DNA from: a virus
Lineage: Duplodnaviria; Heunggongvirae; Uroviricota; Caudoviricetes
Length of the DNA: 64,000 nucleotides
IMG/VR virus record: IMGVR_UViG_3300016476_000468
Coordinates: 39,913 to 103,912 of that record
Reading direction: 5' to 3' (one strand)
Position numbers and translations under genes: made by a program. The notes under the pieces are model-generated. The model ran no database searches. It was given only the letters and a program-made list of their open reading frames with translations, and was not told where the DNA came from. Of this stretch, positions 12,585-52,762 are shown piece by piece. How positions within the stretch are numbered: position 1 is the first letter of the stretch; every line of letters starts with the position of its first letter.

Positions 12585-12775
12585 GATTTTGGTTAATTTG
12601 GGCTAGAGCAACGGGACATCTAATGGGTCGTACTGATGACGACAAACCAGATGTCCCTGTTTTGACTTTACGTGAAGCAAAAGTAGCCTTGCTTTTGAAA
12701 ACTTTTTGGGTAATAATACATGTTATTACCTGCTTTTTTATTATTGCGAACTTTTTCTACACACATATATTATGA
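12581..12775 (+). CDS. small membrane protein
   Basis: C-terminal TM helix, coupled. Confidence 0.65.
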   Translation: MRFWLIWARATGHLMGRTDDDKPDVPVLTLREAKVALLLKTFWVIIHVITCFFIIANFFYTHIL

Positions 12776-13794
12776 CACAAGGTAAAATTGGTTTTGCTTG
12801 CAAGTGGATCGACACAGCAGATCAAGTTGACGGCATTAAACCAAAAGATGACGCACGAAAGTACAGCACTGGAACTACTACTGTTGCTTGGCTCTCTCGT
12901 CAATCTCGTGATGTAGCAGAACAAAAGCTGCTTGATGTCACTAAACAAAACCTGCAGAACACCATCAATCTTGTTAGTAAGGTTGCTTCTCTTCCAGAAG
13001 GCTTGCGCATGGTTCGCCTCAGCAGCGAAATTCTGCCAGTGTACACGCATGCTGACTGGTCTTACTTTTACCAGCAACAACAGATCCAACGCATACTAGA
13101 ACTTGGTTTTGCCAAGATCGGCGAAATTGCACGTAAACACGGTGTGCGTCTTAGTTTCCATCCAGGTCAGTTTTGCGTACTTGCCTCTGAAAATCCTGGT
13201 ATTGTTAACAACTCTATCGCAGAGTTCGAATACCATGCTGACATGGCACGTATGATGGGATATGGCAAAACATTCCAAGACTTTAAGATCAACGTACATA
13301 TCTCTGGCAAACTTGGTCCAGATGGTATCCGTGCAGCGCACAAGCGTCTTTCTCCCGAAGCACGTAACTGGATCACTATCGAAAACGAAGAAAACGCATG
13401 GGGTCTTGACGATGCTCTTGAGCTATCAGACTTGCTACCGATTGTTCTAGACGTTCACCATCACTGGTGTCGTGAAGGCGAGTGGCTTGACGCAGACGAC
13501 GTTCGAGTAAAACGTGTTATTGACAGCTGGCGTGGTGTTCGTCCTGTGCTGCATTACTCTATGAGCCGTGAAGATTATCTGGTTGATCACTGCCCCAACA
13601 CCAAGCCAGACTACACGAAACTGCTAGAGAATGGCTACAAAAAAGCTAAGCTACGTGCACATTCTGATTTCTATTGGAATAATGCAGCCAACGATTGGGT
13701 TCTTTCGTATACTAAAACGCACGATATTATGTGCGAGAGCAAAGCCAAAAATTTGGCAAGTTTTGCTCTTTACGAAACACTAAACAGTCGTTAA
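12772..13794 (+). CDS. uvsE: UV damage endonuclease (UvsE/UVDE)
   Basis: GFACK, RLSSEILP, LSFHPGQFCVLAS, TIENEE and LDVHHH motifs. Confidence 0.9.
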   Translation: MTQGKIGFACKWIDTADQVDGIKPKDDARKYSTGTTTVAWLSRQSRDVAEQKLLDVTKQNLQNTINLVSKVASLPEGLRMVRLSSEILPVYTHADWSYFYQQQQIQRILELGFAKIGEIARKHGVRLSFHPGQFCVLASENPGIVNNSIAEFEYHADMARMMGYGKTFQDFKINVHISGKLGPDGIRAAHKRLSPEARNWITIENEENAWGLDDALELSDLLPIVLDVHHHWCREGEWLDADDVRVKRVIDSWRGVRPVLHYSMSREDYLVDHCPNTKPDYTKLLENGYKKAKLRAHSDFYWNNAANDWVLSYTKTHDIMCESKAKNLASFALYETLNSR

Positions 13795-14075: not shown

Positions 14076-14849
14076 ATGGCTCGAAAAGCAGCAGTTGCTG
14101 TAAAGGCAGTAAAAGATAATGAACAATGTGAGCCAAAAGTAAAAACAGTGAATAATCATTTGAAACTAAGAATAGATGACTTAGAGACATTTGATCCGTT
14201 AACAGAAAATCAAAAATTATTTTTTGATGCGTATAAAAGAGGAGATTATTTCGTAGCACTCCATGGAGTTGCTGGAACAGGTAAGACTTTTTGTGCGTTA
14301 TATAAAGCCATTGAAGAAGTCCTAGATAAATCAAATCCATTCAACAAGATTATCGTGGTTCGTTCTGCGGTTCAATCTCGTGAGATTGGTCATCTTCCAG
14401 GAGACGTTAATGAGAAGATGGAAATTTATGAACAACCATATCGTCAAATTTGCGAAACTTTATTCAGACGCAAAGACGCATGGGATAGATTAGAAGAACA
14501 AGGTCACATTACATTTATTTCTACATCATTTATTCGTGGTATGAGTTTCGATGACGCTATCATCATTGTTGATGAGATGCAAAACTTGACCTATGAAGAG
14601 ATTGATACCGTTATGACTCGTGTCGGTTATCGATCTAAGATTATTTGGTGTGGCGATTATCGTCAGACAGACTTGAACAAAAGAAAGAATGATGTCACAG
14701 GTATTTTGAAATTCTTTGACATCGCTCAACACATGAGTGCGTTTACTCGTATTGAGTTTACTGTTGACGATATCGTGAGAAGTTCTCTCGTGAAAGACTA
14801 TATTTTGGCTAAACTTAAATATGAGGATTACCATGAGAAGAAACAATGA
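14076..14849 (+). CDS. phoH: PhoH-family ATPase
   Basis: GVAGTGKT, IGHLPG, FIRGMSF, IVDEMQN, GDYRQTD and DIVRS motifs. Confidence 0.95.
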   Translation: MARKAAVAVKAVKDNEQCEPKVKTVNNHLKLRIDDLETFDPLTENQKLFFDAYKRGDYFVALHGVAGTGKTFCALYKAIEEVLDKSNPFNKIIVVRSAVQSREIGHLPGDVNEKMEIYEQPYRQICETLFRRKDAWDRLEEQGHITFISTSFIRGMSFDDAIIIVDEMQNLTYEEIDTVMTRVGYRSKIIWCGDYRQTDLNKRKNDVTGILKFFDIAQHMSAFTRIEFTVDDIVRSSLVKDYILAKLKYEDYHEKKQ

Positions 14850-15466
14850 TCACAGCGGAGCAATTTCACAAACTATTCCCACGTAATCCTGAGCCAGCTG
14901 TTTGGGCAGAGGCAATGGCAAATGTCTTTCCAACATACGAGATTAATACACCACAACGTGTTGCAGCTTTCTTAGCTCAATGTGGTCACGAATCTGGTGG
15001 ATGGACTACGTTTGAAGAAAACCTTAACTATTCAGCGCAAGGTTTGAGAAAAATTTTTGGTAAGTATTTCCCTAACGATGAGTTAGCTTTGGCTTACCAA
15101 CGTCAACCACAAAAGATTGCGAATCGTATCTATGCTAACCGCATGGGTAATGGACCAGAGGAATCTGGTGATGGATTCAAATATCGTGGTCGTGGACCAA
15201 TTCAGTTAACTGGAAAATCGAACTATACTGCATTTGCTAAGGATATGTTCGAAGACTGGCAAAACGTAGTTGAGAATCCAGACTGGGTGACGTATGATAA
15301 AGATTTCGCATTGATGTCTGCTATTTGGTTCTGGAACAAAAACGGATTAAACAAAGAAGCAGACGCAGGTGATATCAAGACGATGACTCGCAAGATCAAT
15401 GGTGGTTACATTGGACTTGAAGATCGAATTAAACATTATAATGAGTGTATCCACGAACTGACTTAA
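14846..15466 (+). CDS. glycoside hydrolase family 19 endolysin
   Basis: FLAQCGHESG, ENLNYS, YRGRGPIQLTG and TRKINGG motifs. Confidence 0.9.
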   Translation: MITAEQFHKLFPRNPEPAVWAEAMANVFPTYEINTPQRVAAFLAQCGHESGGWTTFEENLNYSAQGLRKIFGKYFPNDELALAYQRQPQKIANRIYANRMGNGPEESGDGFKYRGRGPIQLTGKSNYTAFAKDMFEDWQNVVENPDWVTYDKDFALMSAIWFWNKNGLNKEADAGDIKTMTRKINGGYIGLEDRIKHYNECIHELT

Positions 15467-16119
15467 TGAAAACTTTTATACATCATGATTTCCCCAAACT
15501 GGAACGTGACACAAGCCCCGATGGCACTAGAGTCTACAAGACGCCATCGGGTCGAGCCTATCCTTCCGTCACAACCGTCACCTCACTCCACAACGCAGAA
15601 GGAATCGCAAAGTGGCGAGCAAGAGTTGGCGCAGAAGAAGCAAACAGAATCTCATCAAAAGCAAGCGCACGTGGAACAAGAATCCACTCTCTCTGCGAGG
15701 CATACCTCCGCAATGAGAGATGTGAGCCTGACATCTTCGATAAAGAGTTATTTGGAAGTATTGAACAATGGCTCGGAGACATAGACAACATCCACGCACT
15801 AGAAGATCCTCTGTATTCAGATTATCTACAAGTTGCAGGAACTGTTGACTGTATTGCTGAGTTTCAGGGGAAACTTTCGATCATCGATTTCAAGACAGCC
15901 AGCAAGCCAAAAGACAGAGACGATATCTACAACTACTTTATGCAAACTGCAGCGTATTCGGTTGCATTTGAAGAACGTACTGGAATCCCTGTTGGTAGAC
16001 TTGTTATCATTATGGCAGTCGAAAATGACGATCCTCGTCTGTTTATCGAAAAGCGTGATAACTGGATCGGTGGTTTTAGAAAATTAAGACTTGACTACAA
16101 GAACAAGTTCGGGGTATAA
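15466..16119 (+). CDS. PD-(D/E)xK exonuclease (MGME1/Cas4-like)
   Basis: YPSVTTV, RGTRIH, AGTVDCI, IIDFKT and QTAAY motifs. Confidence 0.85.
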   Translation: MKTFIHHDFPKLERDTSPDGTRVYKTPSGRAYPSVTTVTSLHNAEGIAKWRARVGAEEANRISSKASARGTRIHSLCEAYLRNERCEPDIFDKELFGSIEQWLGDIDNIHALEDPLYSDYLQVAGTVDCIAEFQGKLSIIDFKTASKPKDRDDIYNYFMQTAAYSVAFEERTGIPVGRLVIIMAVENDDPRLFIEKRDNWIGGFRKLRLDYKNKFGV

Positions 16120-16124
16120 TAAAT
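16091..16124 (+). promoter_or_regulatory. overlapping sigma70 and late-type promoters for tmRNA
   Basis: TTGACT-18-TATAAT running into ATAAATA. Confidence 0.7.
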
Positions 16125-16126
16125 AC

Positions 16127-16476
16127 AGTTATTGCTGTATGAAGCAAAGAGAAAAGTGTTCTGGACGGGAGTTCGATTCTCCCCACCTCCACCAAAAGCA
16201 GACTAGAGACAGATAGGCAGTGTAACATATTCTAGACCATTTGTTACATACCTAGAAAAAGGCTGTTACTGGTAGTCAGACTCTAATGTTACCCATGAGT
16301 CTGCTTTTGATGGGGGTGACTAGGTTTCGACAGGGCAAAGAGTAACAGAGTGGACAGCACGACAGGAGTAGTCGTTAAAAGCAAACCAAAGTAAATGCAA
16401 ATGACTCTGTCTACGCATTAGCAGCCTAAACGCTGCTTAGGGTTTCGGTGGTTTCCTCGTAACAGAATAACCACCA
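16127..16476 (+). ncRNA. ssrA: circularly permuted (two-piece) tmRNA
   Basis: T-arm GGGAG-TTCGATT-CTCCC plus CACCTCC-A-CCA ending at 16194 lies upstream of the 5' end GGGGGTG (16312), pairing with a G3:U70 wobble; tag ORF 16397-16429 reads ANDSVYALAA*; outer ends approximate. Confidence 0.92.
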
Positions 16477-16495
16477 CTTTACAAAAGGAGATTCT

Positions 16496-16672
16496 ATGAA
16501 AAAGATGTTAGTTTTAGTCGCTCTGGCTTTCTCATTTAGCGCATTCGCTGCTGAACCTGCTAAGAAAGAACCAGCAAAAGCTGAGAAGAAGGTTGAAAAG
16601 AAGGAAGTCAAGCCTAAATCACCTCCATCTGACAAGAAACCTACTCCGAAGAAAAAACCAGAAGCTAAATAA
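16496..16672 (+). CDS. secreted Lys/Pro/Glu-rich small protein (58 aa)
   Basis: AAGGAG RBS; signal peptide MKKMLVLVALAFSFSAFA followed by a low-complexity charged tail. Confidence 0.75.
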   Translation: MKKMLVLVALAFSFSAFAAEPAKKEPAKAEKKVEKKEVKPKSPPSDKKPTPKKKPEAK

Positions 16673-16690
16673 TATTATCCAGTAATGGAT

Positions 16691-16710
16691 CGTGGTTGGA
16701 GGCAACCACG
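16691..16710 (+). other. intergenic hairpin
   Basis: CGTGGTTG-GAGG-CAACCACG downstream of CTAAATA (16665). Confidence 0.5.
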
Positions 16711-16755
16711 TTAAAAACCTTCATCACACATAACACAACACAAAGGAGAAAACCT

Positions 16756-17031
16756 ATGTCAAATATGACTCCGTTCGAGATCAGACTTGAACTTTTGAAA
16801 ATGGCTCAAACTATGCTTGAGCAAGATTATTATGGTAAACGTGAGCAAATTTCTAACGACTGGCAAGTCAAAGTAGAAAATGCTCGTCATGCGGGTTCTG
16901 CGCCTCCAGAACATCCTGGGTTTCCATCATACCCAACTGAAGCCGAAGTTATTGCGAAAGCAGCTACACTGAACGGTTTCGTCTCACAAATCCCAATTAC
17001 ACAAGAAAAGACTAGCAAAAAGTCCACCTGA
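16756..17031 (+). CDS. conserved T4-like hypothetical protein
   Basis: TPFEIRLELLKMA...YPTEAEVIAKA; AAAGGAG RBS. Confidence 0.8.
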   Translation: MSNMTPFEIRLELLKMAQTMLEQDYYGKREQISNDWQVKVENARHAGSAPPEHPGFPSYPTEAEVIAKAATLNGFVSQIPITQEKTSKKST

Positions 17032-17039
17032 TAGGGATT

Positions 17040-17066
17040 GGGTGCATTCGTGCACCCTTCTAATTT
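17040..17066 (+). terminator. intrinsic terminator
   Basis: GGGTGCA-TTCG-TGCACCC followed by a T-rich tail. Confidence 0.65.
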
Positions 17067-17078
17067 AAGGAGATCAAT

Positions 17079-17585
17079 ATGCGAAGTATATACTTACCTC
17101 TCATATCTGCAGCTATTTGTTTCGCCATATTAATAGGTGTGACAGATCAAACTGATAAGCTGCTAGAAATACATTATACACAATTAACAAAAGAAACGCA
17201 AAAACAAATAGATTGTTTAGCAGCAAACATTTATCACGAAGCTGGCAATGAACCCCATGATGGTAAAGTTGCTGTTGCTTTAGTAACTCTTAACAGAACT
17301 CAAGACCCAAGGTTTCCAAAAGATATTTGCTCTGTAGTGAAACAAAAGGTAAACTCTACTTGTCAGTTTTCTTGGTTCTGTATGCCCGTAACAATTAAGG
17401 CTAGAGAAGTATATGACAAAGCCAGAGATGTTGCTGTTCACGTATACGTGAACTACGAAAAGATTCCTGACATAACAGGTGGTGCATTATTTTACCATGC
17501 TGATTATGTAAATCCAAGATGGAAACTGGAAAAGACTACTGTTATTGGTAGACACATTTTTTATAAAGACAAGGATCGTATATGA
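17079..17585 (+). CDS. SleB-like cell wall hydrolase (Hydrolase_2)
   Basis: CLAANIYHEA, VALVTLNR, CQFSW, ALFYHADYV and IGRHIFY motifs; N-terminal anchor. Confidence 0.9.
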   Translation: MRSIYLPLISAAICFAILIGVTDQTDKLLEIHYTQLTKETQKQIDCLAANIYHEAGNEPHDGKVAVALVTLNRTQDPRFPKDICSVVKQKVNSTCQFSWFCMPVTIKAREVYDKARDVAVHVYVNYEKIPDITGGALFYHADYVNPRWKLEKTTVIGRHIFYKDKDRI

Positions 17586-18139
17586 TGAACAAACTAAACC
17601 TCCAATTAAAAGAAGAGACATCTCGTCATTCGTTTTTGTTGTTGATGGAGGAAATTAGTTTACAGTCAGTTAAAACTGCTGTTGAATGGATTTTCGAAGC
17701 CAACTTTACCGAAGAACGACCAGAGATGCTTAATATGATTGTGACATCTCCAGGTGGCGATTTAAATGCAGCATTTGCGCTAATTGACGTTATGCGTGGT
17801 TCTGCTATCCCAATTAGAACTATTGGTCTTGGACAGATTGCTTCTGCTGGCTTGATGATCTTTATCGCTGGTGATGCTGGTATGCGTATCCTTACGCCAA
17901 ATACTTCTATCCTTTCTCACCAATATTCTTGGGGTGCGATTGGTAAGGAACACGAACTTTTTGCTACTGTTCGTGAATTCGATCTAACGACCAAAAAGAT
18001 GATTCAACATTATAAGAAGTGCACTGGTCTTTCTGAAGCAAAAATTAGAGAAGTATTGCTTCCACCGCAAGACGTTTGGTTAAGCCCACAAGAAGCTAAA
18101 AAACTAGGATTGTGCGATGATGTCAAAGATCTTGCCTAA
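17582..18139 (+). CDS. clpP: ClpP-like serine protease
   Basis: TSPGGD, IASAG (catalytic Ser), SHQ (catalytic His) and DVWLSPQEA motifs. Confidence 0.8.
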   Translation: MMNKLNLQLKEETSRHSFLLLMEEISLQSVKTAVEWIFEANFTEERPEMLNMIVTSPGGDLNAAFALIDVMRGSAIPIRTIGLGQIASAGLMIFIAGDAGMRILTPNTSILSHQYSWGAIGKEHELFATVREFDLTTKKMIQHYKKCTGLSEAKIREVLLPPQDVWLSPQEAKKLGLCDDVKDLA

Positions 18140-39407: not shown

Positions 39408-41984
39408 ATGGCAACTTCAGCGCTATTGAAGTCTCCACTTCATAATTCTGTTGCTCAGGCGTTATACGACGAGATTCAGAATAGAAATGCGAGATATTAT
39501 TACTTCCTAGGTAGAACTCTAACTTGGGAGGATGATAGTACACCACCATATCCTATCGACAGTTTCGATTACGAGTTAAAGACTCGTAACGAGATTATCA
39601 CTATGAAGGAAATTAAGTCTACCGATGTTGCATTCGTAACAAATCGAGTAGACTGGGTCACTGGTCAGGTCTGGGATATGTATGATGACCAATATAGCGA
39701 TGAAGTACAAGGTATTAACTTAATTTCTGGTGGATACGGTTATTCCGATCCACCGACTGTCACAATCTCTGGCGGTGGCGGTACTGGTGCAGTAGCTGTT
39801 CCAGTCATCGATAATGGTGTTATTGTTTCTATCGAAATGGTAAATCGTGGTAGAGGCTATACTTCTGTGCCAACTGTAACTATTACAGGCGGTGGCGGTG
39901 AAGGCGCTTCTGCGACTGCCAGCGTTAGAATTGCATATTCTGGTGCGCAAAAATTAGAAGACATTAGATCTATCGTTATGACCGATGAGTATAACGTTTA
40001 CAAGTGTCTTGACAACAACAATAACGCAATTTCTACATACAAACCTATCGGTACTGTTGTAGATCCAGTTATTATGCCAGACGGATATATGTGGAAATAC
40101 TTGTATAGTATTCCAATCGCTCTGCGCAATAAATTCTTGACTGACGTTTATATGCCTGTCGTTAATGCTCTGCGTGGGCAGTTTTACTCTGGCGGAGAAA
40201 TTTTAAACGTTGTTCTTGAGAACAATGGACAGAATTACACATTCGCTAACATCGTAGTTTCTGGAGATGGATACAGAGCTAGTGATCCACTAGTTTTGCA
40301 GAACGTTCAAATTAGCGCTCCAGGCACAGGCTACAATAGTGGTGCTACTTGTACGATCGAACCTCCATTCTCTGGTGCTAACGTTTGGACATCTGGTGTT
40401 GCCATTCTTATGGGTCAAAAGGTTGAGTATAACAACAACCTTTACGAAGCAACAATGTCTGGTACTATGGCTGCTCCAGCGCCAACGCACAAGTATGGAA
40501 TTGTTACAAATGGAACAGCAGCACTAAAGTATATCGGTACTCGTGCTACAGGAACTGTTGTTACTAGTGGCGGACAGGTAACAGGCATCACGTTAAACGG
40601 ATCCATTTATGAGATTCTTGTCACAAACCCAGGATCTGGATATACATCTGCGCCCACAGTAAATCTTTCTGGTGGTGCAGGTTCTGGTTTTGTTGGTCAA
40701 TCTGTTATGCGTGGAACAGGTGTTGCGAGAGTAACTGTTTTAGATTCTGGTAACAACTATACTAGCGTTCCTACTGTAACTTTTGGTACAGCTTGGTCTG
40801 CTTCTACTGCGTATACAGTAGGACAACAGATTTATGCCTCTAACAGACTATACACAGTGACTACTGCAGGAACTTCTGGTTCTACTGCTCCAACACACGT
40901 TACAGGCGCTGCTTCTAACGGAACTGCTACACTAACTTATGTCGGCTCCCCAGCTACTGGCACTGCATCTTTAAAATATGGCTCTGGCTACTCTGTGTTA
41001 CCAGCTATCACTATTCAAGCTACTAGTGGTGGCTCTGGCGCTAAGGCATATTTTGTAGGTGTTAAATCTGAAGCTAAACTTATTCCCATTCTTTCTAATG
41101 GGCAGATTGTTGGTGTACAGATTGATGACGGCGGTGTTGGCTATACATATGCTAATATAACTGTAACAGGCGACGGAACTGATGCATCTTTAAGAGCAGA
41201 CCTTTCTCCAGGTGACATCAATACTCTACAGGCTAACACAGAACTATTGACTATTGATGGTAGAATTATGGCGTTTGACGTCATTTCTGGTGGTTATGGA
41301 TATGGAACTAACCCAACTATTACAATCGAAGGTGATGGTACAGGCGCAACAGCCCATGCAGTTGTAGTTGGTGGAGCCATTAAGAAAATTGTAGTAGATA
41401 CATACGGACAAGGCTATCGTTGGGCTACTGTTACTGTTACAGGCGGTGGTAATGGTGCTAAAGTCAGAGCTATTATGGCTCCATACGGTGGACACGGAAA
41501 GGATCCTATCGTTGGTTCTTTTGCAAGAACTCTTATGTTCTATACCAATATCTCTAAAGATACCAACCAAGGATTTAACGTTAACAACGACTTCCGTCAG
41601 TTGGGTATTATCAAAAACCCACGACAGTTTGGCTCTTATGGTAACCTTAAGACTTCTTTAGCATCAGCTTGTTATGTTTTGATTGGAACTGTTTCCGAGT
41701 CCTTTGAACCTGATATGTTAATCAGACTAGGTGATGCAGAAGGACCACGTTTTAGAATTGTTTCTAAAACAACTAATGGGATGTTGGTGCAGTCTATTGA
41801 TAATGCTGTGCCGCAAGTAGGTAATATTTTCTTAAATCCAAACTCAGTAACTTTCTCAGCTTCTGGAGTAACTCCTCCAACAGCAGATAAATATTCTGGT
41901 CAATTGCTGTTCATTGACAATAAACAAGCGTTTACACCGACAGCAGACCAGACAGTTACGCTGAGAACTGTCATCAAGTTCTAA
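39408..41984 (+). CDS. gp8: baseplate wedge gp8 with GxGY repeat and carbohydrate-binding-like insertions
   Basis: YYFLGR, YNVYKCLDN, DGYMWKYLY and NDFRQLGIIKNP motifs. Confidence 0.75.
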   Translation: MATSALLKSPLHNSVAQALYDEIQNRNARYYYFLGRTLTWEDDSTPPYPIDSFDYELKTRNEIITMKEIKSTDVAFVTNRVDWVTGQVWDMYDDQYSDEVQGINLISGGYGYSDPPTVTISGGGGTGAVAVPVIDNGVIVSIEMVNRGRGYTSVPTVTITGGGGEGASATASVRIAYSGAQKLEDIRSIVMTDEYNVYKCLDNNNNAISTYKPIGTVVDPVIMPDGYMWKYLYSIPIALRNKFLTDVYMPVVNALRGQFYSGGEILNVVLENNGQNYTFANIVVSGDGYRASDPLVLQNVQISAPGTGYNSGATCTIEPPFSGANVWTSGVAILMGQKVEYNNNLYEATMSGTMAAPAPTHKYGIVTNGTAALKYIGTRATGTVVTSGGQVTGITLNGSIYEILVTNPGSGYTSAPTVNLSGGAGSGFVGQSVMRGTGVARVTVLDSGNNYTSVPTVTFGTAWSASTAYTVGQQIYASNRLYTVTTAGTSGSTAPTHVTGAASNGTATLTYVGSPATGTASLKYGSGYSVLPAITIQATSGGSGAKAYFVGVKSEAKLIPILSNGQIVGVQIDDGGVGYTYANITVTGDGTDASLRADLSPGDINTLQANTELLTIDGRIMAFDVISGGYGYGTNPTITIEGDGTGATAHAVVVGGAIKKIVVDTYGQGYRWATVTVTGGGNGAKVRAIMAPYGGHGKDPIVGSFARTLMFYTNISKDTNQGFNVNNDFRQLGIIKNPRQFGSYGNLKTSLASACYVLIGTVSESFEPDMLIRLGDAEGPRFRIVSKTTNGMLVQSIDNAVPQVGNIFLNPNSVTFSASGVTPPTADKYSGQLLFIDNKQAFTPTADQTVTLRTVIKF

Positions 41985-42015: not shown

Positions 42016-45000
42016 ATGATCGATTTCAACACAGAACCGTATAATGACGATTACGACGAGAATAAAAAATTCTATCGTATTCTCTATCGTCCTTCGTTCG
42101 CTGTACAGGCTCGTGAACTTACTCAGATGCAGACGCTTCTGCAGAAGCAAATTTCTCGTCACGGGTCTGCAATTTTCAAACAAGGTGCGATGGTTATTCC
42201 AGGACAGTGTTCTGTTGAGACCGTTACACAACCAAACCAAGGTGCTGACTACGTTAAGCTACAGGTTAGCTACAACGGCGTAGCAGTTCAGACATTTATT
42301 TCTGCGCTAGAAGGCGCATCAATCGTTGGTACTAGTGGTGTTACTGCTACTGTTATTAAGGCACAAGACGCAGAAGGTACAGACCCAACAACTCTGTATG
42401 TTCGCTATACAAGCAGCGGTTCTAATAACTCAACAAAAACTTTCTCTAATAACGAAGTTATTCAAACTGAGGATGGAATCTACACTTTCCAAGCTGCAAC
42501 AACAGATGCAACTGGTAAGGGTTCTCTTGCCACTATTCAGCGTGGTGTTTACTACGTCAACGAACATTTCTGCTTGGTCGAAGAACAATCTATCGTTCTA
42601 GACAAGTATTCTAATACTCCTACATACCGTATTGGATTGCACGTTTCTGAGGGTGTCGTAACACCAGAGCAAGATGAAACTTTGCTTGATAATGCACAGA
42701 ACAGCTACAACTTTGCTGCTCCAGGCGCTCACCGTTACTACATTGACCTAACTCTGACTAAAATTGCAGTTGATGCAACTGCAGACTTAAACTTCATCGA
42801 ACTAATTCGTGTTGACGATGGTAGAATCAAAACAATCGTAGACAAAACAGAATACTCTCTATTGGCTGATGAGTTGGCTCGACGCACATACGACGAGTCT
42901 GGTGATTACACTGTTCGTGATTTTGCTATTGATATTCGTGAGCATCGCAACAACAATCGTGGTCAATGGTTGCAAAATACAGCTTACATCTCTGGTGACG
43001 TAGTAACAAACGCTGGTAACATTTATGTAGCTAGAACATCTGGTTCTTCTGTTACTACTGCACCAACACATACTACTGGCACCGCATATGACGGTCCAGG
43101 TTCTACTGGTATTAAGTGGGAGTGGACTAACGCTCCAGTTTACAATCGTGGTATCTACCGTCCAGAAGATGGCGGCGACGAAGCTAAACTTGCTATCGGT
43201 CTAGAGCCAGGAAAAGCATACGTTCGTGGCTACGAGATTCAAAAAGATTCTACTACATATATTGCAGTTGAGAAGGCACGTGACTATGACCAACAAACAG
43301 GCGCTATTATTCAACCTACTGTTGGTAATTATTTACTTATCACTAACGTTAATAACTTACCTCCAGTAGACACATACGATATCGTTAAGTTGTATGATCA
43401 AGTTACTGGTTCATCTGTAGGTACACCTGTAGGTACTCAAGTTGGTACTGCTCGTGTGCGTTTTATGGAATGGTCTGGTGGCGCTTCTTTTGGATCTGGT
43501 GCTATCTACAAACTAGGTTTATTTGATGTTCAGATGAATGCTGGTAAAGACTTTAACAGAAGCGTTAAATCTTTCTATTACAGCAACGGTGGAGATCCAA
43601 ATCTATCCTTCACTGCAGACATCAATCCTGTTTCAACCGCACTGATTGGTTCTATTACAGCTTCTTCTGGTTCTGTTACTGGAACTGGAACTTCTTTCCA
43701 GACTGATTTAGTTTCTGGAGATTACATTTTAGTTGATGGTGTTATGTATCGTGTTACTGCATCACCATCTTCACAAAACGCACTAACTTTAAATACTGGA
43801 ACATTTACTGGTAAAGCATTCGCTCTAGCAACTACTCAGTTACTAGAAACACAAAATACTGGTATGGTGTTCCCACAACCAAACTATGCTATTCGTTCTA
43901 ATAGATCTGCTGGAACTTCTGGTATCAACAACACAACATATGTTTGCTACCAAAAATTCACACAGAATGCTTCTGGAACATCTCTTTCTCTAAGTACTTC
44001 TGGCACATTTATGCCAGCAAGTGGTGTTACAAACTATATCGTGGTTGATAACGATGCTGCAGCTGGTGGTGCAGTGATTCAACCAGTAAGTATCGTACCA
44101 TTAGGTTCTTCTGTAACTATTACACTACCACCAGCACAGTCTGGTCGTTCTATCACAGTTATTGCAGCTGTACAGCGTAATGGTTCTGGTTACGAAAAGA
44201 ACAAAACTTTGACAACTGTTACAGAGCAATTCAACACTGCATCTCTTGCACAACAAGCGTCATTGATTCTAGATAAAGCCGACGTATTCCGTATCACTAG
44301 CGTTAAGATGGCTGCTGGCACTGCATTCCAAGCATCTAATACAACACTAGCTTCTAATCTTTATACTCTTGATATCTCTGATCGTTTTGACTTTGATAAT
44401 GGTCAGCGCACTACTCACTACGACTGGGGTCGTCTGAACCTAAAACCATCGTTCACAATCCCATCTGGTCCAGTTCAAGTTACTTACGAATACTTTGAGC
44501 ACAGCGTTGGTGATTATTTCGATGTGAACTCTTACAGCACTATTGACTATAACAAGATCCCAGCTGTGTTGCGTGACTCTCTTGACTTCCGCCCACGTGT
44601 TGCTAACAGATCAGCTAATGCAAACAAGAGCTTTGTTGGAACTGGCGCTTCTTTGACTTCTGTTCCAAAACGTGGAGAAAACGTTTCTTCTGACTACAGC
44701 TACTACTTCTCTCGTAAAGACAAGATTGCTGTAGACTTTAACGGCAAGTTCTTTAACATCAAGGGCGTTCCATCTATCGATCCAGGTGAGCCACAAGACC
44801 CAGCATTGGGTATGGTTCTTTACACTCTGGCTCTTGAACCGTACACTTACTCTACTAACTCTGTATCAGTTTCTAAAGTAGAGAACAAACGTTATACAAT
44901 GCGTGATATCGGTAAACTAGAAAACCGAATCAATAACTTAGAATACTATACTTCTCTTTCTCTACTAGAGCAAGAGACACAATCTCTTAAGATCACTGAT

Positions 45001-48000
45001 TCTAAGGGTCTGGATAGAATGAAAAACGGATTTATCGTTGATAACTTCAGCGGTAACAACGTCGGTAACTCTAAGTCTCCAGATTATTTCTGCTCTGTTG
45101 ATATGGAGAACAACCAGCTTCGTCCATATTACACAATGCACAACGTTAACTTGATCGAGAAAAACTCTAACGATAGTCAACGAACATCTTCTAAGTATCA
45201 ATTAAACGGCGACATTATCACTCTGCCGATTATTGAAACTCCTGTTCTAATCAAACAAGAGTACGCCTCTCGTTTGGAGAACATTAACCCATTTGCAATC
45301 TACACCTTCTTGGGTAATGTAGATATTAACCCACCTTCTGACGACTGGTTTGAGACTAGTCGTTTGCCTGACATCGTTCAGCAGACTGAGGGTAACTACA
45401 GCATGATCCGTGATCTGGCTATCCGTGCTGGTATTATCGGTGAGGGTGGTTTCGGCACTCTATGGAACCCATGGGAAACAGAGTGGATCGGTAAACCAGT
45501 TACTGTTGGTAACAATACATACTCTGCGGATCGTCGCACTGGTGACGGTGGTGCTGCTCTTGATGCCGCTTTCGGTCTTGGACCAGATGCTCCAGGATGG
45601 GCATTCCGTGTAGTTACAACTGAAGTCCAAGCTACTGCTATCGGACAGTCTCGTACTGGTGTTCGTTCTACTCTTCAAACTAAGACAGACTACGAGCAAG
45701 TTGCAGACCGTACAGTTTCCACTGCAGTTATCCCATATATCCGTTCTAGAAACGTCTTAGTGCAAGTCAAGGGACTGAAGCCACAAACTCGTTTCTACAG
45801 CTACTTCGATGACATTGATGTTAACTCTTACATCACTCCAGCAACTAAGATCGTTTACACTGCTGGAACTGGTACATTCGACGTTGAAACTAACGTTGGT
45901 GGTTCTGCTTCTGAAACCAAGCGTCGTATCGCTGGTGACTCTCAGATCTGCTTGAACCGTGGTGACGTTATTACTACTTCTAACAACTCTGGTTCTGCAG
46001 TTGTTGTTGGTAAATCTGTTGATCCAGATACTGGTGCGTTAACTCTTGATGTTGTCAACGTTATTGGTACTATTACTAATGGACAGTCTTTCACTGGATC
46101 TGTTTCTGGTGCTACTGGAACAGTAGTTTCTGTTACGACTGCAAGCACTCTTGTCACAAATAAACAAGGTGCAGTTAACTTCTTGTTCTATATTCCTAAC
46201 ACAGAAGCAATTCGTTTCCGCACTGGCGCACGTGAACTGAAGTTGATCGACGCATCTACTTCTACTGGTCAGTGGACTAGTCGTGGTCGTGGAATCTACC
46301 GTGCAGAAGGTATTTTAGAAACTAAACAAGCCACTATTAACGCTGTGCGTAATGCAGAAATCGTTAAAGAAGTTATTGGTCCAAATGATGATCCTGCTGC
46401 TCGTCAGACAATTTATCAGACTTCTGAGCGTGTTGTTTCTGATACTGGTTGGTATGATCCACTTGCTCAATCTTTCTTGGTTCAGCAAAAGGGTGGCGCA
46501 TTCCTAACTGGCGTGGATATCTTCTTTGCTACTAAGGATGACCGTATCCCTGTTACTCTAGAAATCCGTGAGATGGTAAACGGAACTCCAGGTAAAAATG
46601 TTCTGCCATTTAGTCGTGTTACATTAGATCCTTCTCAGGTTAACCTTTCTACTAATTTGGTAACTATCGGCGAAGATCCTGCACAGTATCCTAAGTTTGA
46701 TACTCCAACGCACTTCAAGTTTAAGACTCCAGTCTACGTACAAGACAACGGAGAATACTGTTTTGTGCTACAATCAGATTCTAACAATTACAAGGTTTGG
46801 ATCTCTCAAGTTGGTGATGAAATCCCAGGAACTTCTGGTAGAACAATTTCTCAGCAGCCATATGCTGGCGTGATGTTCAAGTCCCAGAATGCTTCTACTT
46901 GGACTGCAGATCAAAACCAAGATATTAAGTTCACAATCTACCGTGCCAAGTTCGACACTAGCGTTGTTGGTAATATTGAATTCGTGAACGACGTCTTACC
47001 ATACGATAAGATTGAAAGCGATCCTATCCAGACTGTTGCTGGCTCTAACACTGTTCGTGTGTGGCACTATGCCCATGGTATGTACGCTGGTTCTCGCGTT
47101 AACATCAAGGGAATTGCTTCTGATGTTAATGGTATCCCAGCTTCAGAACTGAATGGTGAGAAGGTTATCGTAGCTATGGATCCAAACAGCTACACCTTTA
47201 CAACCAGCACTAGTGCTACTGGTAGTGGTTACGGCGGTGGCTCTGCAGTCTATGCAACTAGAAACGTAACATTCGATCTAGTTAACCCTTCTGTTCAGAT
47301 GCAATCTTTCTCTGACACTAAGGCTAACTTCTCTATCAAGACTACTTCTGGTAAGTCTATCGATGGGTCTCAAACACCTTATGTTGCAGAAACATCTTTC
47401 GTGCCATGCTTGATCAAACAGAACAATATTTTCCAATCTCCAAGAGTTATTGCCTCTGAGATCAACGAAAATACTTCTATGGGTGGAGCTAAGTCTATTA
47501 CGTTCTCTGCTCAGATTTCTACTACTAACGATGCAGTTTCCCCAGTTATCGACACTGCTCGTGCTAGTTTGATTGCTGTTTCTAACAAGCTAAATGCTCC
47601 AACTGAAGCTAACACAAACATTGCTGCATTGGATCAGAAACAACTGTTCACTGGCGCTACTGGAGCATTCTCGTTCACTACTACTGGCTTCAATTCTACA
47701 AACGCCGCTGTTCGTGGATTTATGGCTGGTATCGGTATCGGACGCTACGTAACTATCGCTTCTGCTACAACAGCTGGAAACAACGGAACATTCCTAGTGA
47801 CTGGCTACACAGATGATGGTACAACTGGAACTATTACTCTGGGTAGTTTCAGTGGCACTGCTGAAGCAGCTGTTTCTGGAACTTCTGTTGCTGTTCGTGA
47901 GCAGTTCTTCGACGAAATTACTCCAGAAGGTAGCTCTACACTGAGCAAGTATGTAACTGCACCAGTTAAGTTTGCTAACCCATCTACTTTCTTGAGAGTT

Positions 48001-48279
48001 AGATTCGCAGCAAACATTCCTTCAGAGTCTGATGTTCAGGTCTACTACAAGACTTGCACTGGAGACACTAAGCAGTTGCAGACCACTAAATATACACTGT
48101 TGAACCCAGATTCTGCTATTCCAAAGGTAGAACTAGGCAATACAGCGTTCTCTGACGTTAACTATACTCTAACAGGTATGGCTGCGTTTGACAGTATTGT
48201 TGTTAAGATCGTAATGCGTTCTACTAACAGCAGCGCTGTACCACTAATCAAAGACTTAAGAATTATCGCTTGCCCGTAA
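42016..48279 (+). CDS. large virion structural protein (DUF4815-type)
   Basis: PYNDDYDENKKFYRILYRP..QARELTQMQ, APGAHR, LARRTYDESGDY, GFIVDNF and YDPLAQSF motifs. Confidence 0.75.
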   Translation: MIDFNTEPYNDDYDENKKFYRILYRPSFAVQARELTQMQTLLQKQISRHGSAIFKQGAMVIPGQCSVETVTQPNQGADYVKLQVSYNGVAVQTFISALEGASIVGTSGVTATVIKAQDAEGTDPTTLYVRYTSSGSNNSTKTFSNNEVIQTEDGIYTFQAATTDATGKGSLATIQRGVYYVNEHFCLVEEQSIVLDKYSNTPTYRIGLHVSEGVVTPEQDETLLDNAQNSYNFAAPGAHRYYIDLTLTKIAVDATADLNFIELIRVDDGRIKTIVDKTEYSLLADELARRTYDESGDYTVRDFAIDIREHRNNNRGQWLQNTAYISGDVVTNAGNIYVARTSGSSVTTAPTHTTGTAYDGPGSTGIKWEWTNAPVYNRGIYRPEDGGDEAKLAIGLEPGKAYVRGYEIQKDSTTYIAVEKARDYDQQTGAIIQPTVGNYLLITNVNNLPPVDTYDIVKLYDQVTGSSVGTPVGTQVGTARVRFMEWSGGASFGSGAIYKLGLFDVQMNAGKDFNRSVKSFYYSNGGDPNLSFTADINPVSTALIGSITASSGSVTGTGTSFQTDLVSGDYILVDGVMYRVTASPSSQNALTLNTGTFTGKAFALATTQLLETQNTGMVFPQPNYAIRSNRSAGTSGINNTTYVCYQKFTQNASGTSLSLSTSGTFMPASGVTNYIVVDNDAAAGGAVIQPVSIVPLGSSVTITLPPAQSGRSITVIAAVQRNGSGYEKNKTLTTVTEQFNTASLAQQASLILDKADVFRITSVKMAAGTAFQASNTTLASNLYTLDISDRFDFDNGQRTTHYDWGRLNLKPSFTIPSGPVQVTYEYFEHSVGDYFDVNSYSTIDYNKIPAVLRDSLDFRPRVANRSANANKSFVGTGASLTSVPKRGENVSSDYSYYFSRKDKIAVDFNGKFFNIKGVPSIDPGEPQDPALGMVLYTLALEPYTYSTNSVSVSKVENKRYTMRDIGKLENRINNLEYYTSLSLLEQETQSLKITDSKGLDRMKNGFIVDNFSGNNVGNSKSPDYFCSVDMENNQLRPYYTMHNVNLIEKNSNDSQRTSSKYQLNGDIITLPIIETPVLIKQEYASRLENINPFAIYTFLGNVDINPPSDDWFETSRLPDIVQQTEGNYSMIRDLAIRAGIIGEGGFGTLWNPWETEWIGKPVTVGNNTYSADRRTGDGGAALDAAFGLGPDAPGWAFRVVTTEVQATAIGQSRTGVRSTLQTKTDYEQVADRTVSTAVIPYIRSRNVLVQVKGLKPQTRFYSYFDDIDVNSYITPATKIVYTAGTGTFDVETNVGGSASETKRRIAGDSQICLNRGDVITTSNNSGSAVVVGKSVDPDTGALTLDVVNVIGTITNGQSFTGSVSGATGTVVSVTTASTLVTNKQGAVNFLFYIPNTEAIRFRTGARELKLIDASTSTGQWTSRGRGIYRAEGILETKQATINAVRNAEIVKEVIGPNDDPAARQTIYQTSERVVSDTGWYDPLAQSFLVQQKGGAFLTGVDIFFATKDDRIPVTLEIREMVNGTPGKNVLPFSRVTLDPSQVNLSTNLVTIGEDPAQYPKFDTPTHFKFKTPVYVQDNGEYCFVLQSDSNNYKVWISQVGDEIPGTSGRTISQQPYAGVMFKSQNASTWTADQNQDIKFTIYRAKFDTSVVGNIEFVNDVLPYDKIESDPIQTVAGSNTVRVWHYAHGMYAGSRVNIKGIASDVNGIPASELNGEKVIVAMDPNSYTFTTSTSATGSGYGGGSAVYATRNVTFDLVNPSVQMQSFSDTKANFSIKTTSGKSIDGSQTPYVAETSFVPCLIKQNNIFQSPRVIASEINENTSMGGAKSITFSAQISTTNDAVSPVIDTARASLIAVSNKLNAPTEANTNIAALDQKQLFTGATGAFSFTTTGFNSTNAAVRGFMAGIGIGRYVTIASATTAGNNGTFLVTGYTDDGTTGTITLGSFSGTAEAAVSGTSVAVREQFFDEITPEGSSTLSKYVTAPVKFANPSTFLRVRFAANIPSESDVQVYYKTCTGDTKQLQTTKYTLLNPDSAIPKVELGNTAFSDVNYTLTGMAAFDSIVVKIVMRSTNSSAVPLIKDLRIIACP

Positions 48280-51298: not shown

Positions 51299-52762
51299 AT
51301 GAGTAAATTTACGCTAGTGTTGCAAGGCGCTAATGATGTGACGCTTAATATGATTTATGACCCAATGACATCTGAGATGTACTGGGAACATAACCACGAA
51401 AAACCCTCACTGGAACATATCAGTAAGGGTCTTCAATATCAAATGAATGCTAAGGTCTGGGAACCTGCGAATATTACAAACCCGCATGACCCAGAACTAC
51501 ACGGCAAAAAATCAAGAAAGCCAGTTACACTTAAGATCACAATGGGTCTAAAGTGTAACTACGCTTGTTCTTATTGCAACCAAGCCCACCAACCACACGA
51601 CCCAGTCGGCGGTCCAGATGACGCTGAGGAATTAGTGCGCAAGATGAAAGAGAACTTTTCTTTCAGCACGTATGATAACTTCCGTTTAGAATTTTGGGGC
51701 GGTGAACCTCTGGTTTATTGGAAGACTCTAAAACCACTAGCTGAGAAAGTTAAAAAGGTTTATCCTAACGCTCAGTTTATGATGGTTACCAATGGCTCTC
51801 TTTTGACAAGAGACAAAGTTGATTGGTTTAACCGTATGGGGTTTTCAATCGGTATGTCACACGATGGTCCATTGCACGCACAAAACCGTGGTCCAGATCC
51901 GTTGGACGAACCAGTAGCCAAAGACGCTATCGTGTACGCTCTGAAAACTATGGGCACTATGAGATTCACATTCAACTGTGTATTGACTAGAGAAAACGTA
52001 TCTCTGCCTGCGGTTCGTGAATTTATTATTAAGAAACTCAACAGAAAAGATGTAGGTTTTGATAATCCAGGAATCGAGCAGCGTGAGATTCAAGTCACAA
52101 CAGAAGAGCTAATGCTTCCTTACGATGACTCTGGTATGGCACATTCTCTTCAAACAACTGACGAGAAGAAAGAAATTCTACACACTTTATTTGAAGAAAC
52201 TATTGATGGCAAAAACCAGTTCAGCTGGACAGTTTATCAAAAGGTCAAGGGTTTCTTCGAGTCTATTGTATATGGTCGCCCAGCTGAAGCTGTTGGCCAA
52301 AAGTGTGGCATGGACAGAGAAGACAACATCGCCATCGATATGAAGGGTAATGTCACTACTTGCCAAAACACTTCTTCGCTAACTAAGCACAATATCGGTA
52401 ATATCGAAGACTTCGATAATATCCGTTTGACTAACTCTTACCATTGGTCTACTCGTAAGGAATGCCCTTCTTGCCCAGTAGTTCAGCTATGTCAAGGCGC
52501 TTGTTTGTTCTTAGAAGACCAATATTGGGAACAGGCGTGTGAAAACCTATTCTGGTATAACTTAGCTATGTTGAGTGCGGCATTGTTCAAGATGACTGAT
52601 GGTCTAGTATTGACTGAGATTCGAGGCGATCGTATTCGTTTTGACGGAGTTACTAGCATTCCAGTAATCGACATCGAATATATGAAGACTGGTAAAAAGA
52701 GTTGGAAGGTTCGTAAGCCACTAAACATCCCAGTAGTGCAAGTTCCAGTAGAACCTAAATAA
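51299..52762 (+). CDS. radical SAM/SPASM-domain protein
   Basis: CNYACSYC, FWGGEPL, VTNGSLL, SHDG; SPASM C..GNVTTC and CPSCPVVQLCQGAC; CTAAATA at 51263. Confidence 0.95.
   Translation: MSKFTLVLQGANDVTLNMIYDPMTSEMYWEHNHEKPSLEHISKGLQYQMNAKVWEPANITNPHDPELHGKKSRKPVTLKITMGLKCNYACSYCNQAHQPHDPVGGPDDAEELVRKMKENFSFSTYDNFRLEFWGGEPLVYWKTLKPLAEKVKKVYPNAQFMMVTNGSLLTRDKVDWFNRMGFSIGMSHDGPLHAQNRGPDPLDEPVAKDAIVYALKTMGTMRFTFNCVLTRENVSLPAVREFIIKKLNRKDVGFDNPGIEQREIQVTTEELMLPYDDSGMAHSLQTTDEKKEILHTLFEETIDGKNQFSWTVYQKVKGFFESIVYGRPAEAVGQKCGMDREDNIAIDMKGNVTTCQNTSSLTKHNIGNIEDFDNIRLTNSYHWSTRKECPSCPVVQLCQGACLFLEDQYWEQACENLFWYNLAMLSAALFKMTDGLVLTEIRGDRIRFDGVTSIPVIDIEYMKTGKKSWKVRKPLNIPVVQVPVEPK

Follow-up and report, generated by a model that had tools for sequence, protein, structure and literature searches.

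The circularly permuted ssrA gene of Caulobacter, which is of the alpha type, gives rise to a transfer-messenger RNA (tmRNA) of two pieces, whose activity in trans-translation was demonstrated by experiment (Keiler et al. 2000, as cited in PMC3985003 and PMC9004378). Permuted precursors are processed by RNase P and tRNase Z (PMC3985003). Listings of ssrA genes in phages go back to at least 2014 (PMC4131195). A two-piece tmRNA of a phage was published in 2022 in the description of phage Melnitz, where functional ideas of the kind considered here were already discussed and 53 permuted tmRNAs called by ARAGORN were counted among published phage genomes, 50 of them aquatic (PMC9004378); a 2025 tmRNA database contains 79 phage sequences. 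Here we describe a permuted tmRNA gene at positions 16127-16476 of a 64,000-nucleotide (nt) stretch, hereafter the window, of the Caudoviricetes record IMGVR_UViG_3300016476_000468 (positions 39,913 to 103,912). Judged from comparative sequence analysis, this gene is very probably a functional phage ssrA whose two-piece tmRNA belongs to a beta-like lineage carried by phages.

ARAGORN detected exactly one RNA gene in the window, a permuted tmRNA (16102-16520, plus strand) with the tag ANDSVYALAA. Both tRNA domains were called, and the gene order is the permuted one, with the acceptor/T-arm half upstream of the 5′ half and both on the plus strand. The Rfam model RF04321 (tmRNA_permuted) matched positions 16133-16429 over its full length (model positions 1-213) with 129.8 bits (cut-off 47, E 4e-25), and RF01850 (beta_tmRNA) matched 16082-16481 with 118.3 bits (cut-off 84, E 2e-35). 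RF01850 scored best of the three lineage models: the alpha tmRNA model gave 64.8 bits (cut-off 50), while the cyanobacterial model, with 39.8 bits, remained under its cut-off of 70. The gene was thus classified as beta-like, and it is set apart in this respect from the Caulobacter gene, which is of the alpha lineage, lies on a bacterial chromosome and has its own SmpB. An earlier note on this DNA, made from the letters alone, had read the locus as a phage-encoded, circularly permuted two-piece tmRNA with the same tag; the ARAGORN call, both covariance models, covariation among 59 homologues and the completeness of the phage genome (see below) bear this out.

The acceptor (3′) piece (16127-16194) is defined by the Rfam alignment, the ARAGORN 3′ tRNA domain and covariation; its start is placed near 16127 from the position of a putative promoter and the onset of similarity to relatives. 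It comprises, on the plus strand like all features of the gene, an outer P2 strand (16133-16138), a P2a strand TGTTCTG (16157-16163), a T-arm (16167-16183) with the loop TTCGATT, the acceptor 3′ strand CACCTCC (16184-16190), the discriminator A (16191) and an encoded CCA (16192-16194). The coding (5′) piece (16312-16477), which is supported by Rfam, ARAGORN and the covariation of all helices, opens with the acceptor 5′ strand GGGGGTG (16312-16318), so that G1 is position 16312 and the acceptor stem is 7 bp long. As read from the bases, this stem contains the alanine identity pair G3:U70 (16314:16188). Further downstream are the P2a strand CAGGGCA (16331-16337), which pairs with TGTTCTG of the acceptor piece, the outer P2 strand (16354-16359), a hairpin after P2 (16360-16374), the tag reading frame (16397-16429; resume codon GCA at 16397, stop codon TAA at 16427-16429) and a 3′ hairpin (16447-16476) with a conserved 17-nt loop. 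The edges 16127 and 16476 are the points at which conservation among relatives begins and ends. All coordinates in the earlier note proved correct, including the CCA end at 16194 and G1 at 16312, and its acceptor stem with G3:U70 and discriminator A and its P2a pairing across the two pieces are visible in the bases.

A scan of IMG/VR with a motif of the 5′ piece retrieved at least 119 viral contigs, and 89 of the 119 fetched loci were called permuted by ARAGORN, most of them with AND..ALAA-type tags. From these searches, 59 distinct phage genes were compared by aligning two conserved blocks separately and folding them jointly. Compensatory changes were found in every helix of the tRNA-like domain. 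The outer P2 pair 16135:16357 is CG in 29 homologues and UA in 29, the neighbouring pair 16134:16358 occurs as GC (50) or AU (9), and the P2a pair 16158:16336 as GC (39) or AU (9). The T-arm pair 16168:16182 occurs in four types (GC, CG, UA and AU), and the acceptor pair 5:68 as CG (28), UA (22) or GC (8). The pairs G1:C72, G2:C71 and G3:U70 do not vary, the last being present in 59/59 homologues. Covariation extends to the hairpin after P2 and to the 3′ hairpin, the 17-nt loop of which is nearly constant among the phage genes.

The tag is equally constrained. Among 45 distinct tag reading frames of 10 codons the consensus is A-N-D-x-x-[F/Y/W]-A-L-A-A: Ala1, Asn2, Ala9 and Ala10 never change, Asp3, Ala7 and Leu8 hardly do, position 6 is aromatic throughout, and positions 4-5 vary freely. 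Synonymous codons have turned over at the fixed positions, with four codons used for Leu8 and four for Ala10, and the homologues preserve both the resume context GUAAA[C/U]|GCA and the stop codon. This pattern, which would be expected of a translated and recognised tag, indicates conservation as a peptide and not as RNA. Both the tRNA-like structure and the tag are under purifying selection. The C-terminal ALAA corresponds to the part of the tag recognised by ClpX/ClpA, and the N-terminal part to that bound by SspB (PMC3985003). A literature search on tags of this type gave no match.

Between CCA and G1 lies an intervening segment of 117 nt (16195-16311), which is predicted to be excised. All of its reading frames are interrupted by stop codons throughout, leaving no open reading frame (ORF), and no Rfam match was found inside it. 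The segment folds with -29.1 kcal/mol and is closed by a helix (16195-16204/16298-16307), followed by the leader TGAT (16308-16311) directly 5′ of G1. A closing helix of at least 5 bp, starting at the first base after CCA, is present in 59/59 phage homologues; its sequences differ between phages while the pairing persists, i.e. the helix covaries. The TGAT leader precedes G1 in nearly all of them, and UGAU opposite ACCA permits pairing at 3/4 positions, so that the acceptor stem, the ACCA/UGAU stretch and the closing helix would form one precursor stem of about 21 bp or more. The conserved helix and leader fit processing into two pieces.

Contigs from four RNA-library runs were compared with positions 15800-16800. 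They match the mature blocks only (approximately 16127-16200, 16302-16369 and 16387-16493), and two of them bridge the gap with a different insert of 55 nt. These contigs thus stem from relatives and represent either DNA or uncut precursor; they were dropped as a sign of transcription or cleavage of the window gene, and so were the flanks without coverage and the low word shares in the RNA runs.

Bacterial two-piece genes were recovered from Azonexus, Dechloromonas, Accumulibacter, Thauera, Azoarcus and a metagenome-assembled genome (MAG) of Cupriavidus. The window gene resembles these betaproteobacterial (Rhodocyclaceae) genes in its permuted order, P2 layout and RF01850 score above the cut-off, in an excised hairpin that starts directly after CCA and a 3-4-nt leader before G1, and in the AND..A[LIV]AA-type tag and the homologous 3′ hairpin. 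However, they score 228-313 bits with RF01850 compared with 118 bits for the window gene and align with it in the tRNA-like core only; the last hairpin of the model is missing from the window gene. Their design of the intervening segment is the same but mostly a simple hairpin of about 25-30 nt (just 3-4 nt in three Accumulibacter-type copies), whereas in the phage copies the apex of the hairpin is expanded, giving segments of 53-200 nt of unrelated sequence. Compared with phage copies, the window gene has a median identity of about 76%, and compared with bacterial Rhodocyclaceae copies one of about 57%. A tree built from the mature parts groups the 17 bacterial genes in one clade (Shimodaira-Hasegawa-like support 0.98); apart from two viral loci nested within it (L032 and L051, see below), all phage genes, including the window gene, fall outside this clade. 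The gene is therefore best described, on this tree and these identities, as a member of a beta-type radiation of phage genes that is sister to, and distinct from, the bacterial Rhodocyclaceae lineage. As to the phylogeny proposed in the earlier note, in which the gene was to be compared with betaproteobacterial ssrA, the beta affiliation held, but the gene lies outside the Rhodocyclaceae-type clade.

The motif used for the scan is not specific for permuted genes, since 103/120 bacterial matches were one-piece tmRNAs of other phyla. Further viral contigs retrieved with it (L013, L022, L026, L077, L081, L082, L087, L108 and others) carry cyanobacterial-type permuted tmRNAs with spacers of 5-8 nt and long tags containing ANNIVAF; no ClpP homologue was found at any of these loci. 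Two other viral contigs (L032 and L051) have tmRNAs that fall inside the bacterial Rhodocyclaceae clade, with hairpins of 25-29 nt; these probably represent host DNA flanking prophages that inserted at ssrA, rather than phage genes.

The earlier note had also taken the ALAA-ending tag as a hint of the host. This proved unsafe: the pattern ANDSV[Y/F]ALAA was absent from 185,579 GTDB species representatives, and host assignment from the tag ANDSVYALAA was rejected. Among 401 sampled Burkholderiales genomes, just two had a permuted gene that matched past the T-arm. In the first (G070, 2.0 Mb) the gene is chromosomal, beside ispH, with the tag ANDENFALAA. The second, a 2.3-Mb Burkholderiales species representative (G250; the locus G250:C5:26739-29864 is L258), contains a phage-like permuted tmRNA with the tag ANDESYALAA and a UGAU leader, and the nearest Atlas clusters of the adjacent ORF are all viral; this copy may belong to a prophage or to phage DNA that was binned with a MAG.

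The same beta-type gene was found in a cultured cyanophage, Synechococcus phage BUCT-ZZ01 (ON615601, Kyanoviridae), a lake isolate propagated on S. elongatus PCC 7942. Its permuted tmRNA (RF01850 94.5 bits) lies at approximately 116.9-117.3 kb of ON615601.1 on the minus strand (L273:2286-2704), is unannotated and overlaps the 3′ end of a hypothetical coding sequence; its tag, ANDETFSMALAA, is two residues longer than that of the window gene, and its intervening segment is about 111 nt long. BUCT-ZZ01 is the only cultured phage in which we found this type of gene. It also shares with the window phage a tRNA with a CUA anticodon and a ClpP protease (53.5% identical), but its tmRNA is about 66% identical and is located among tRNA genes about 41 kb from clpP, and its host is a cyanobacterium. 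A mismatch between phage tmRNA type and host was previously described for Melnitz (PMC9004378). These two cases establish that neither tmRNA type nor tag identifies the host of a phage.

The two-piece ssrA genes of marine T4-like phages (Melnitz, Mosig and relatives) are comparable to the window gene in being permuted, phage-encoded and aquatic, in belonging to the same branch of T4-like myophages and in lying downstream of an early-type promoter (PMC9004378). The Melnitz gene differs in that it is alpha-type, is accompanied by a glutamine riboswitch and lies upstream of a gene for a late-transcription coactivator (PMC9004378), whereas the window gene is beta-type, comes from fresh water and is situated between genes for a PD-(D/E)XK nuclease and ClpP. 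A search for a glutamine riboswitch was negative, both over the whole window at the gathering cut-off and over 15900-16800 at E ≤1. The one-piece tmRNAs of Bxz1-group mycobacteriophages and Bacillus phage G likewise represent phage-borne ssrA genes without a phage SmpB (PMC4131195), but are not permuted and have other tags and other hosts.

The source record is 170,571 bp long, has direct terminal repeats, is rated 100% complete and has a G+C content of 41.6%. It represents a freshwater T4-like myophage with gp6, gp32 and gp21 of the T4 type. Its gp6 baseplate protein shares 42% identity with those of Pelagibacter phages Mosig and HTVC008M, 39% with that of Methylophilales phage Melnitz and about 37% with those of cyanophages; the DNA of gp32 matches cyanomyophages, and no psbA-type gene was found in the phage. 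Near-identical DNA (at least half of sampled words in common) occurs in runs of nine other studies, covering freshwater, aquatic, estuary, sediment, riverine and aquaculture metagenomes. The tmRNA gene has a syntenic position in four other complete relatives and in one that is 72% complete, and these six related genomes share 73-81% DNA identity where aligned. The gene is thus truly phage-borne. Neither SmpB (PF01668) nor a ClpX/ClpA-type ATPase (AAA_2) gave a match in the complete 170,571-bp genome, and host proteins would therefore be needed for rescue and unfolding.

Genes around the tmRNA are arranged in the order UvdE-type UV endonuclease (12706-13794), PhoH, GH19 endolysin (14846-15466), PD-(D/E)XK nuclease (ending at 16119), tmRNA, an ORF of 58 amino acids (aa), an ORF of 111 aa, a SleB/Hydrolase_2 cell-wall hydrolase (17079-17585) and ClpP; the endolysin, the 58-aa ORF and the SleB-type hydrolase, which flank the tmRNA, are of the lysis type. 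The 58-aa product (16496-16672) is lysine-rich, has a Sec-type signal peptide and is preceded by the ribosome-binding site AAGGAG. Relatives, too, begin a signal-peptide-like ORF directly after the tmRNA, as seen at the loose end of an RNA-library contig. A terminator-like hairpin (17040-17057) is located between tmRNA and ClpP. Elsewhere in the window there are an ORF of 2087 aa in the structural region (42016-48279) and a radical-SAM domain protein of 487 aa (51299-52762).

A sigma-70-type promoter motif (16091-16120, plus strand) precedes the gene, with a -35 element TTGACT (16091-16096), an 18-nt spacer and a -10 element TATAAT (16115-16120), matching 11/12 consensus positions; it sits within the 3′ end of the nuclease gene. 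About half of the 59 relatives have TTGAC-N17-TATAAT equally far from the conserved 5′ boundary, and we infer that the motif functions as a promoter. In other relatives the tmRNA directly follows an ORF or a tRNA, with which it may be co-transcribed. The motif ATAAATA (16119-16125, plus strand), which overlaps the -10 element, matches 7/8 positions of the T4 late promoter TATAAATA; motifs of this kind occur in 15/59 relatives at varying positions, and a role as a late promoter is weakly suggested. Of the two promoters put forward in the earlier note, the sigma-70-type one is thus conserved in part of the group, while the late one is not conserved in position.

The ClpP-family protease (17582-18139, plus strand; 185 aa; PF00574 CLP_protease, 99.9 bits) is encoded 1.2 kb downstream of the tmRNA on the same strand. 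In an alignment with ClpPs of solved structure, its Ser88, His113 and Asp164 fall on the catalytic triad, and the protease is not needed for head maturation, since a separate gp21-type prohead protease is encoded as well. In the window phage and 4/5 related genomes, clpP is located 1.2-2.5 kb downstream of the tmRNA on the same strand, and in the fifth (G410) 8 kb upstream. Anchoring the comparison on the tmRNA, we found ClpP downstream on the same strand in 28 loci, while about 16 loci with at least 4 kb of downstream sequence had no ClpP there. Anchoring it on ClpP placed the tmRNA 1.0-4.0 kb upstream in 42/43 loci with at least 4.5 kb of upstream sequence; with such variable spacing, the genes between the two must turn over. 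In a different phage group, represented by L109 (1435-2758) and L070, a one-piece tmRNA with the tag ANDNVEVDYALAA lies 340-390 nt upstream of a ClpP that is only 27% identical to that of the window; genes for a trypsin-like peptidase, a PIN-PhoH fusion and a PD-(D/E)XK nuclease come next. Taken together, the gene order is suggestive of a functional link between tmRNA and ClpP. Our literature search found no paper on such a pairing in phages.

Outside the window, a cluster of 31 tRNA genes is closed by a tRNA with the anticodon CTA/CUA, i.e. of the amber-suppressor type (phage genome 25178-25253, L005:2301-2376; Rfam tRNA 56.2 bits). CUA-anticodon tRNAs were also found in two relatives (G406 and G407). 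An apparent absence of this tRNA from five relatives in a BLAST search was discarded as a false negative, as ARAGORN identified it in G406 and G407. Among 133 ORFs of at least 150 aa, TAA is used as the stop codon in 94, TGA in 35 and TAG in 4. Recoding of TAG was rejected, because reading TAG as sense lengthens ORFs no more than reading TGA or TAA as sense, and an in-frame TAG in the ClpP gene of G410 was merely its stop codon.

Based on these features, the following course of events may be proposed. A single precursor would be transcribed, most likely from the sigma-70-type promoter, and would adopt the stem formed by the acceptor helix, ACCA/UGAU and the 10-bp closing helix. Host RNase P would then cut 5′ of G1, the 3′ endo- and exonuclease pathway would trim the RNA to CCA, and the 117-nt hairpin would be discarded; this step is suggested by the conserved architecture together with the established processing of tmRNA and permuted precursors. 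The resulting acceptor piece (about 68 nt) and coding piece (about 165 nt) would be held together by the acceptor stem and the P2 helices, the pairing of which is supported by covariation. Host alanyl-tRNA synthetase (AlaRS) could charge this RNA by means of G3:U70 and the discriminator A, after which host SmpB and elongation factor Tu (EF-Tu) would bring it to stalled ribosomes. Translation would resume at GCA and append A-ANDSVYALAA. Because the tag keeps the residues bound by SspB and recognised by ClpX/ClpA, tagged products would be expected to pass to ClpXP/ClpAP, possibly including the phage ClpP. The net effect would be an additional capacity for ribosome rescue and tagging during infection. 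A role against tRNA- or mRNA-cleaving defences, as raised in the earlier note, is speculative.

Several observations weigh against this interpretation. The RF01850 score is far below those of the bacterial members; aligned to the model, the window gene lacks the terminal hairpin and has part of P2 flagged as non-canonical. RNAalifold returned a weak consensus for the coding piece, the helices of which were taken from the alignment and from separate alignment of the blocks. No U-run follows the 3′ hairpin. The 3′ end given for the coding piece is approximate, and co-transcription of the coding piece with the downstream 58-aa ORF is possible. Compatibility with host SmpB, AlaRS and ClpX is assumed. 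Alternatively, the RNA might mainly be a decoy for host SmpB, titrating it and so blocking trans-translation in the host without any tagging of proteins. Phage DS6A has little beyond the tRNA-like domain of tmRNA, and a similar molecule inhibits tmRNA (PMC4131195, PMC11915505); the window phage also lacks an SmpB match. We consider this very improbable, as conservation of the tag frame, resume context and stop codon with synonymous turnover would be unexpected if the tag were untranslated. It is extremely improbable that the gene is a passenger, i.e. a recent capture from the host, a remnant of an attachment site or mis-assembled bacterial DNA. Such an origin is conceivable in that ssrA is a frequent integration site (PMC9004378) and in that the tmRNAs of L032 and L051, the possible host flanks, group with those of bacteria. 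However, both halves of the window gene are complete and occupy the same place in six related phage genomes, the phage radiation branches outside the well-supported bacterial clade, the tag occurs in no species representative, and structure and tag bear the marks of purifying selection.

A further proposal accepts tagging by the phage tmRNA but places it, together with phage ClpP and tRNA(CUA), in one phage-run module of protein turnover. Suppressor read-through of host mRNAs ending in TAG would generate non-stop complexes, the phage tmRNA would tag their products, and phage ClpP with a host unfoldase would degrade them, resulting in host shut-off and recycling of amino acids. Suppressor tRNAs are known to create tmRNA substrates (Ueda 2002, as cited in PMC3985003), the tRNA is shared by the window phage, G406, G407 and BUCT-ZZ01, and the phage itself ends only 4/133 long ORFs with TAG. 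The ClpP linkage, seen from either anchor, agrees with such a module, as do the intact triad of ClpP, which is distinct from the head protease, and the presence of an unlike, one-piece tmRNA upstream of the distant ClpP of L109 and L070. On the other hand, synteny among related phages may reflect an inherited backbone only, and the independence of L109 is uncertain given that it has PhoH and PD-(D/E)XK neighbours in common with the window phage. The loci devoid of ClpP, the distances in G410 (8 kb) and BUCT-ZZ01 (about 41 kb) and the terminator-like hairpin between the two genes also speak against it, and with 27-33 tRNAs in these phages tRNA(CUA) may just be part of a large translation set. 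We therefore regard the complete module as unlikely and favour a functional two-piece tmRNA that relies on host factors.

Phage two-piece tmRNAs are already known (PMC9004378), and the window gene represents a well-supported new example from fresh water. The new points are modest: the size and distinctness of the beta-like radiation in phages, the conserved helix of the precursor and the expansion of its apex, the nearly constant placement of the gene upstream of phage ClpP, and the unannotated tmRNA of BUCT-ZZ01, a cultured cyanophage and thus a potential experimental system. For phages, tmRNA type and tag are unreliable predictors of the host. The order tmRNA-then-ClpP, together with a suppressor-type tRNA, provides a testable idea of why large lytic phages carry ssrA; if the module were real, it would constitute a phage-directed device for host shut-off and amino-acid recycling.

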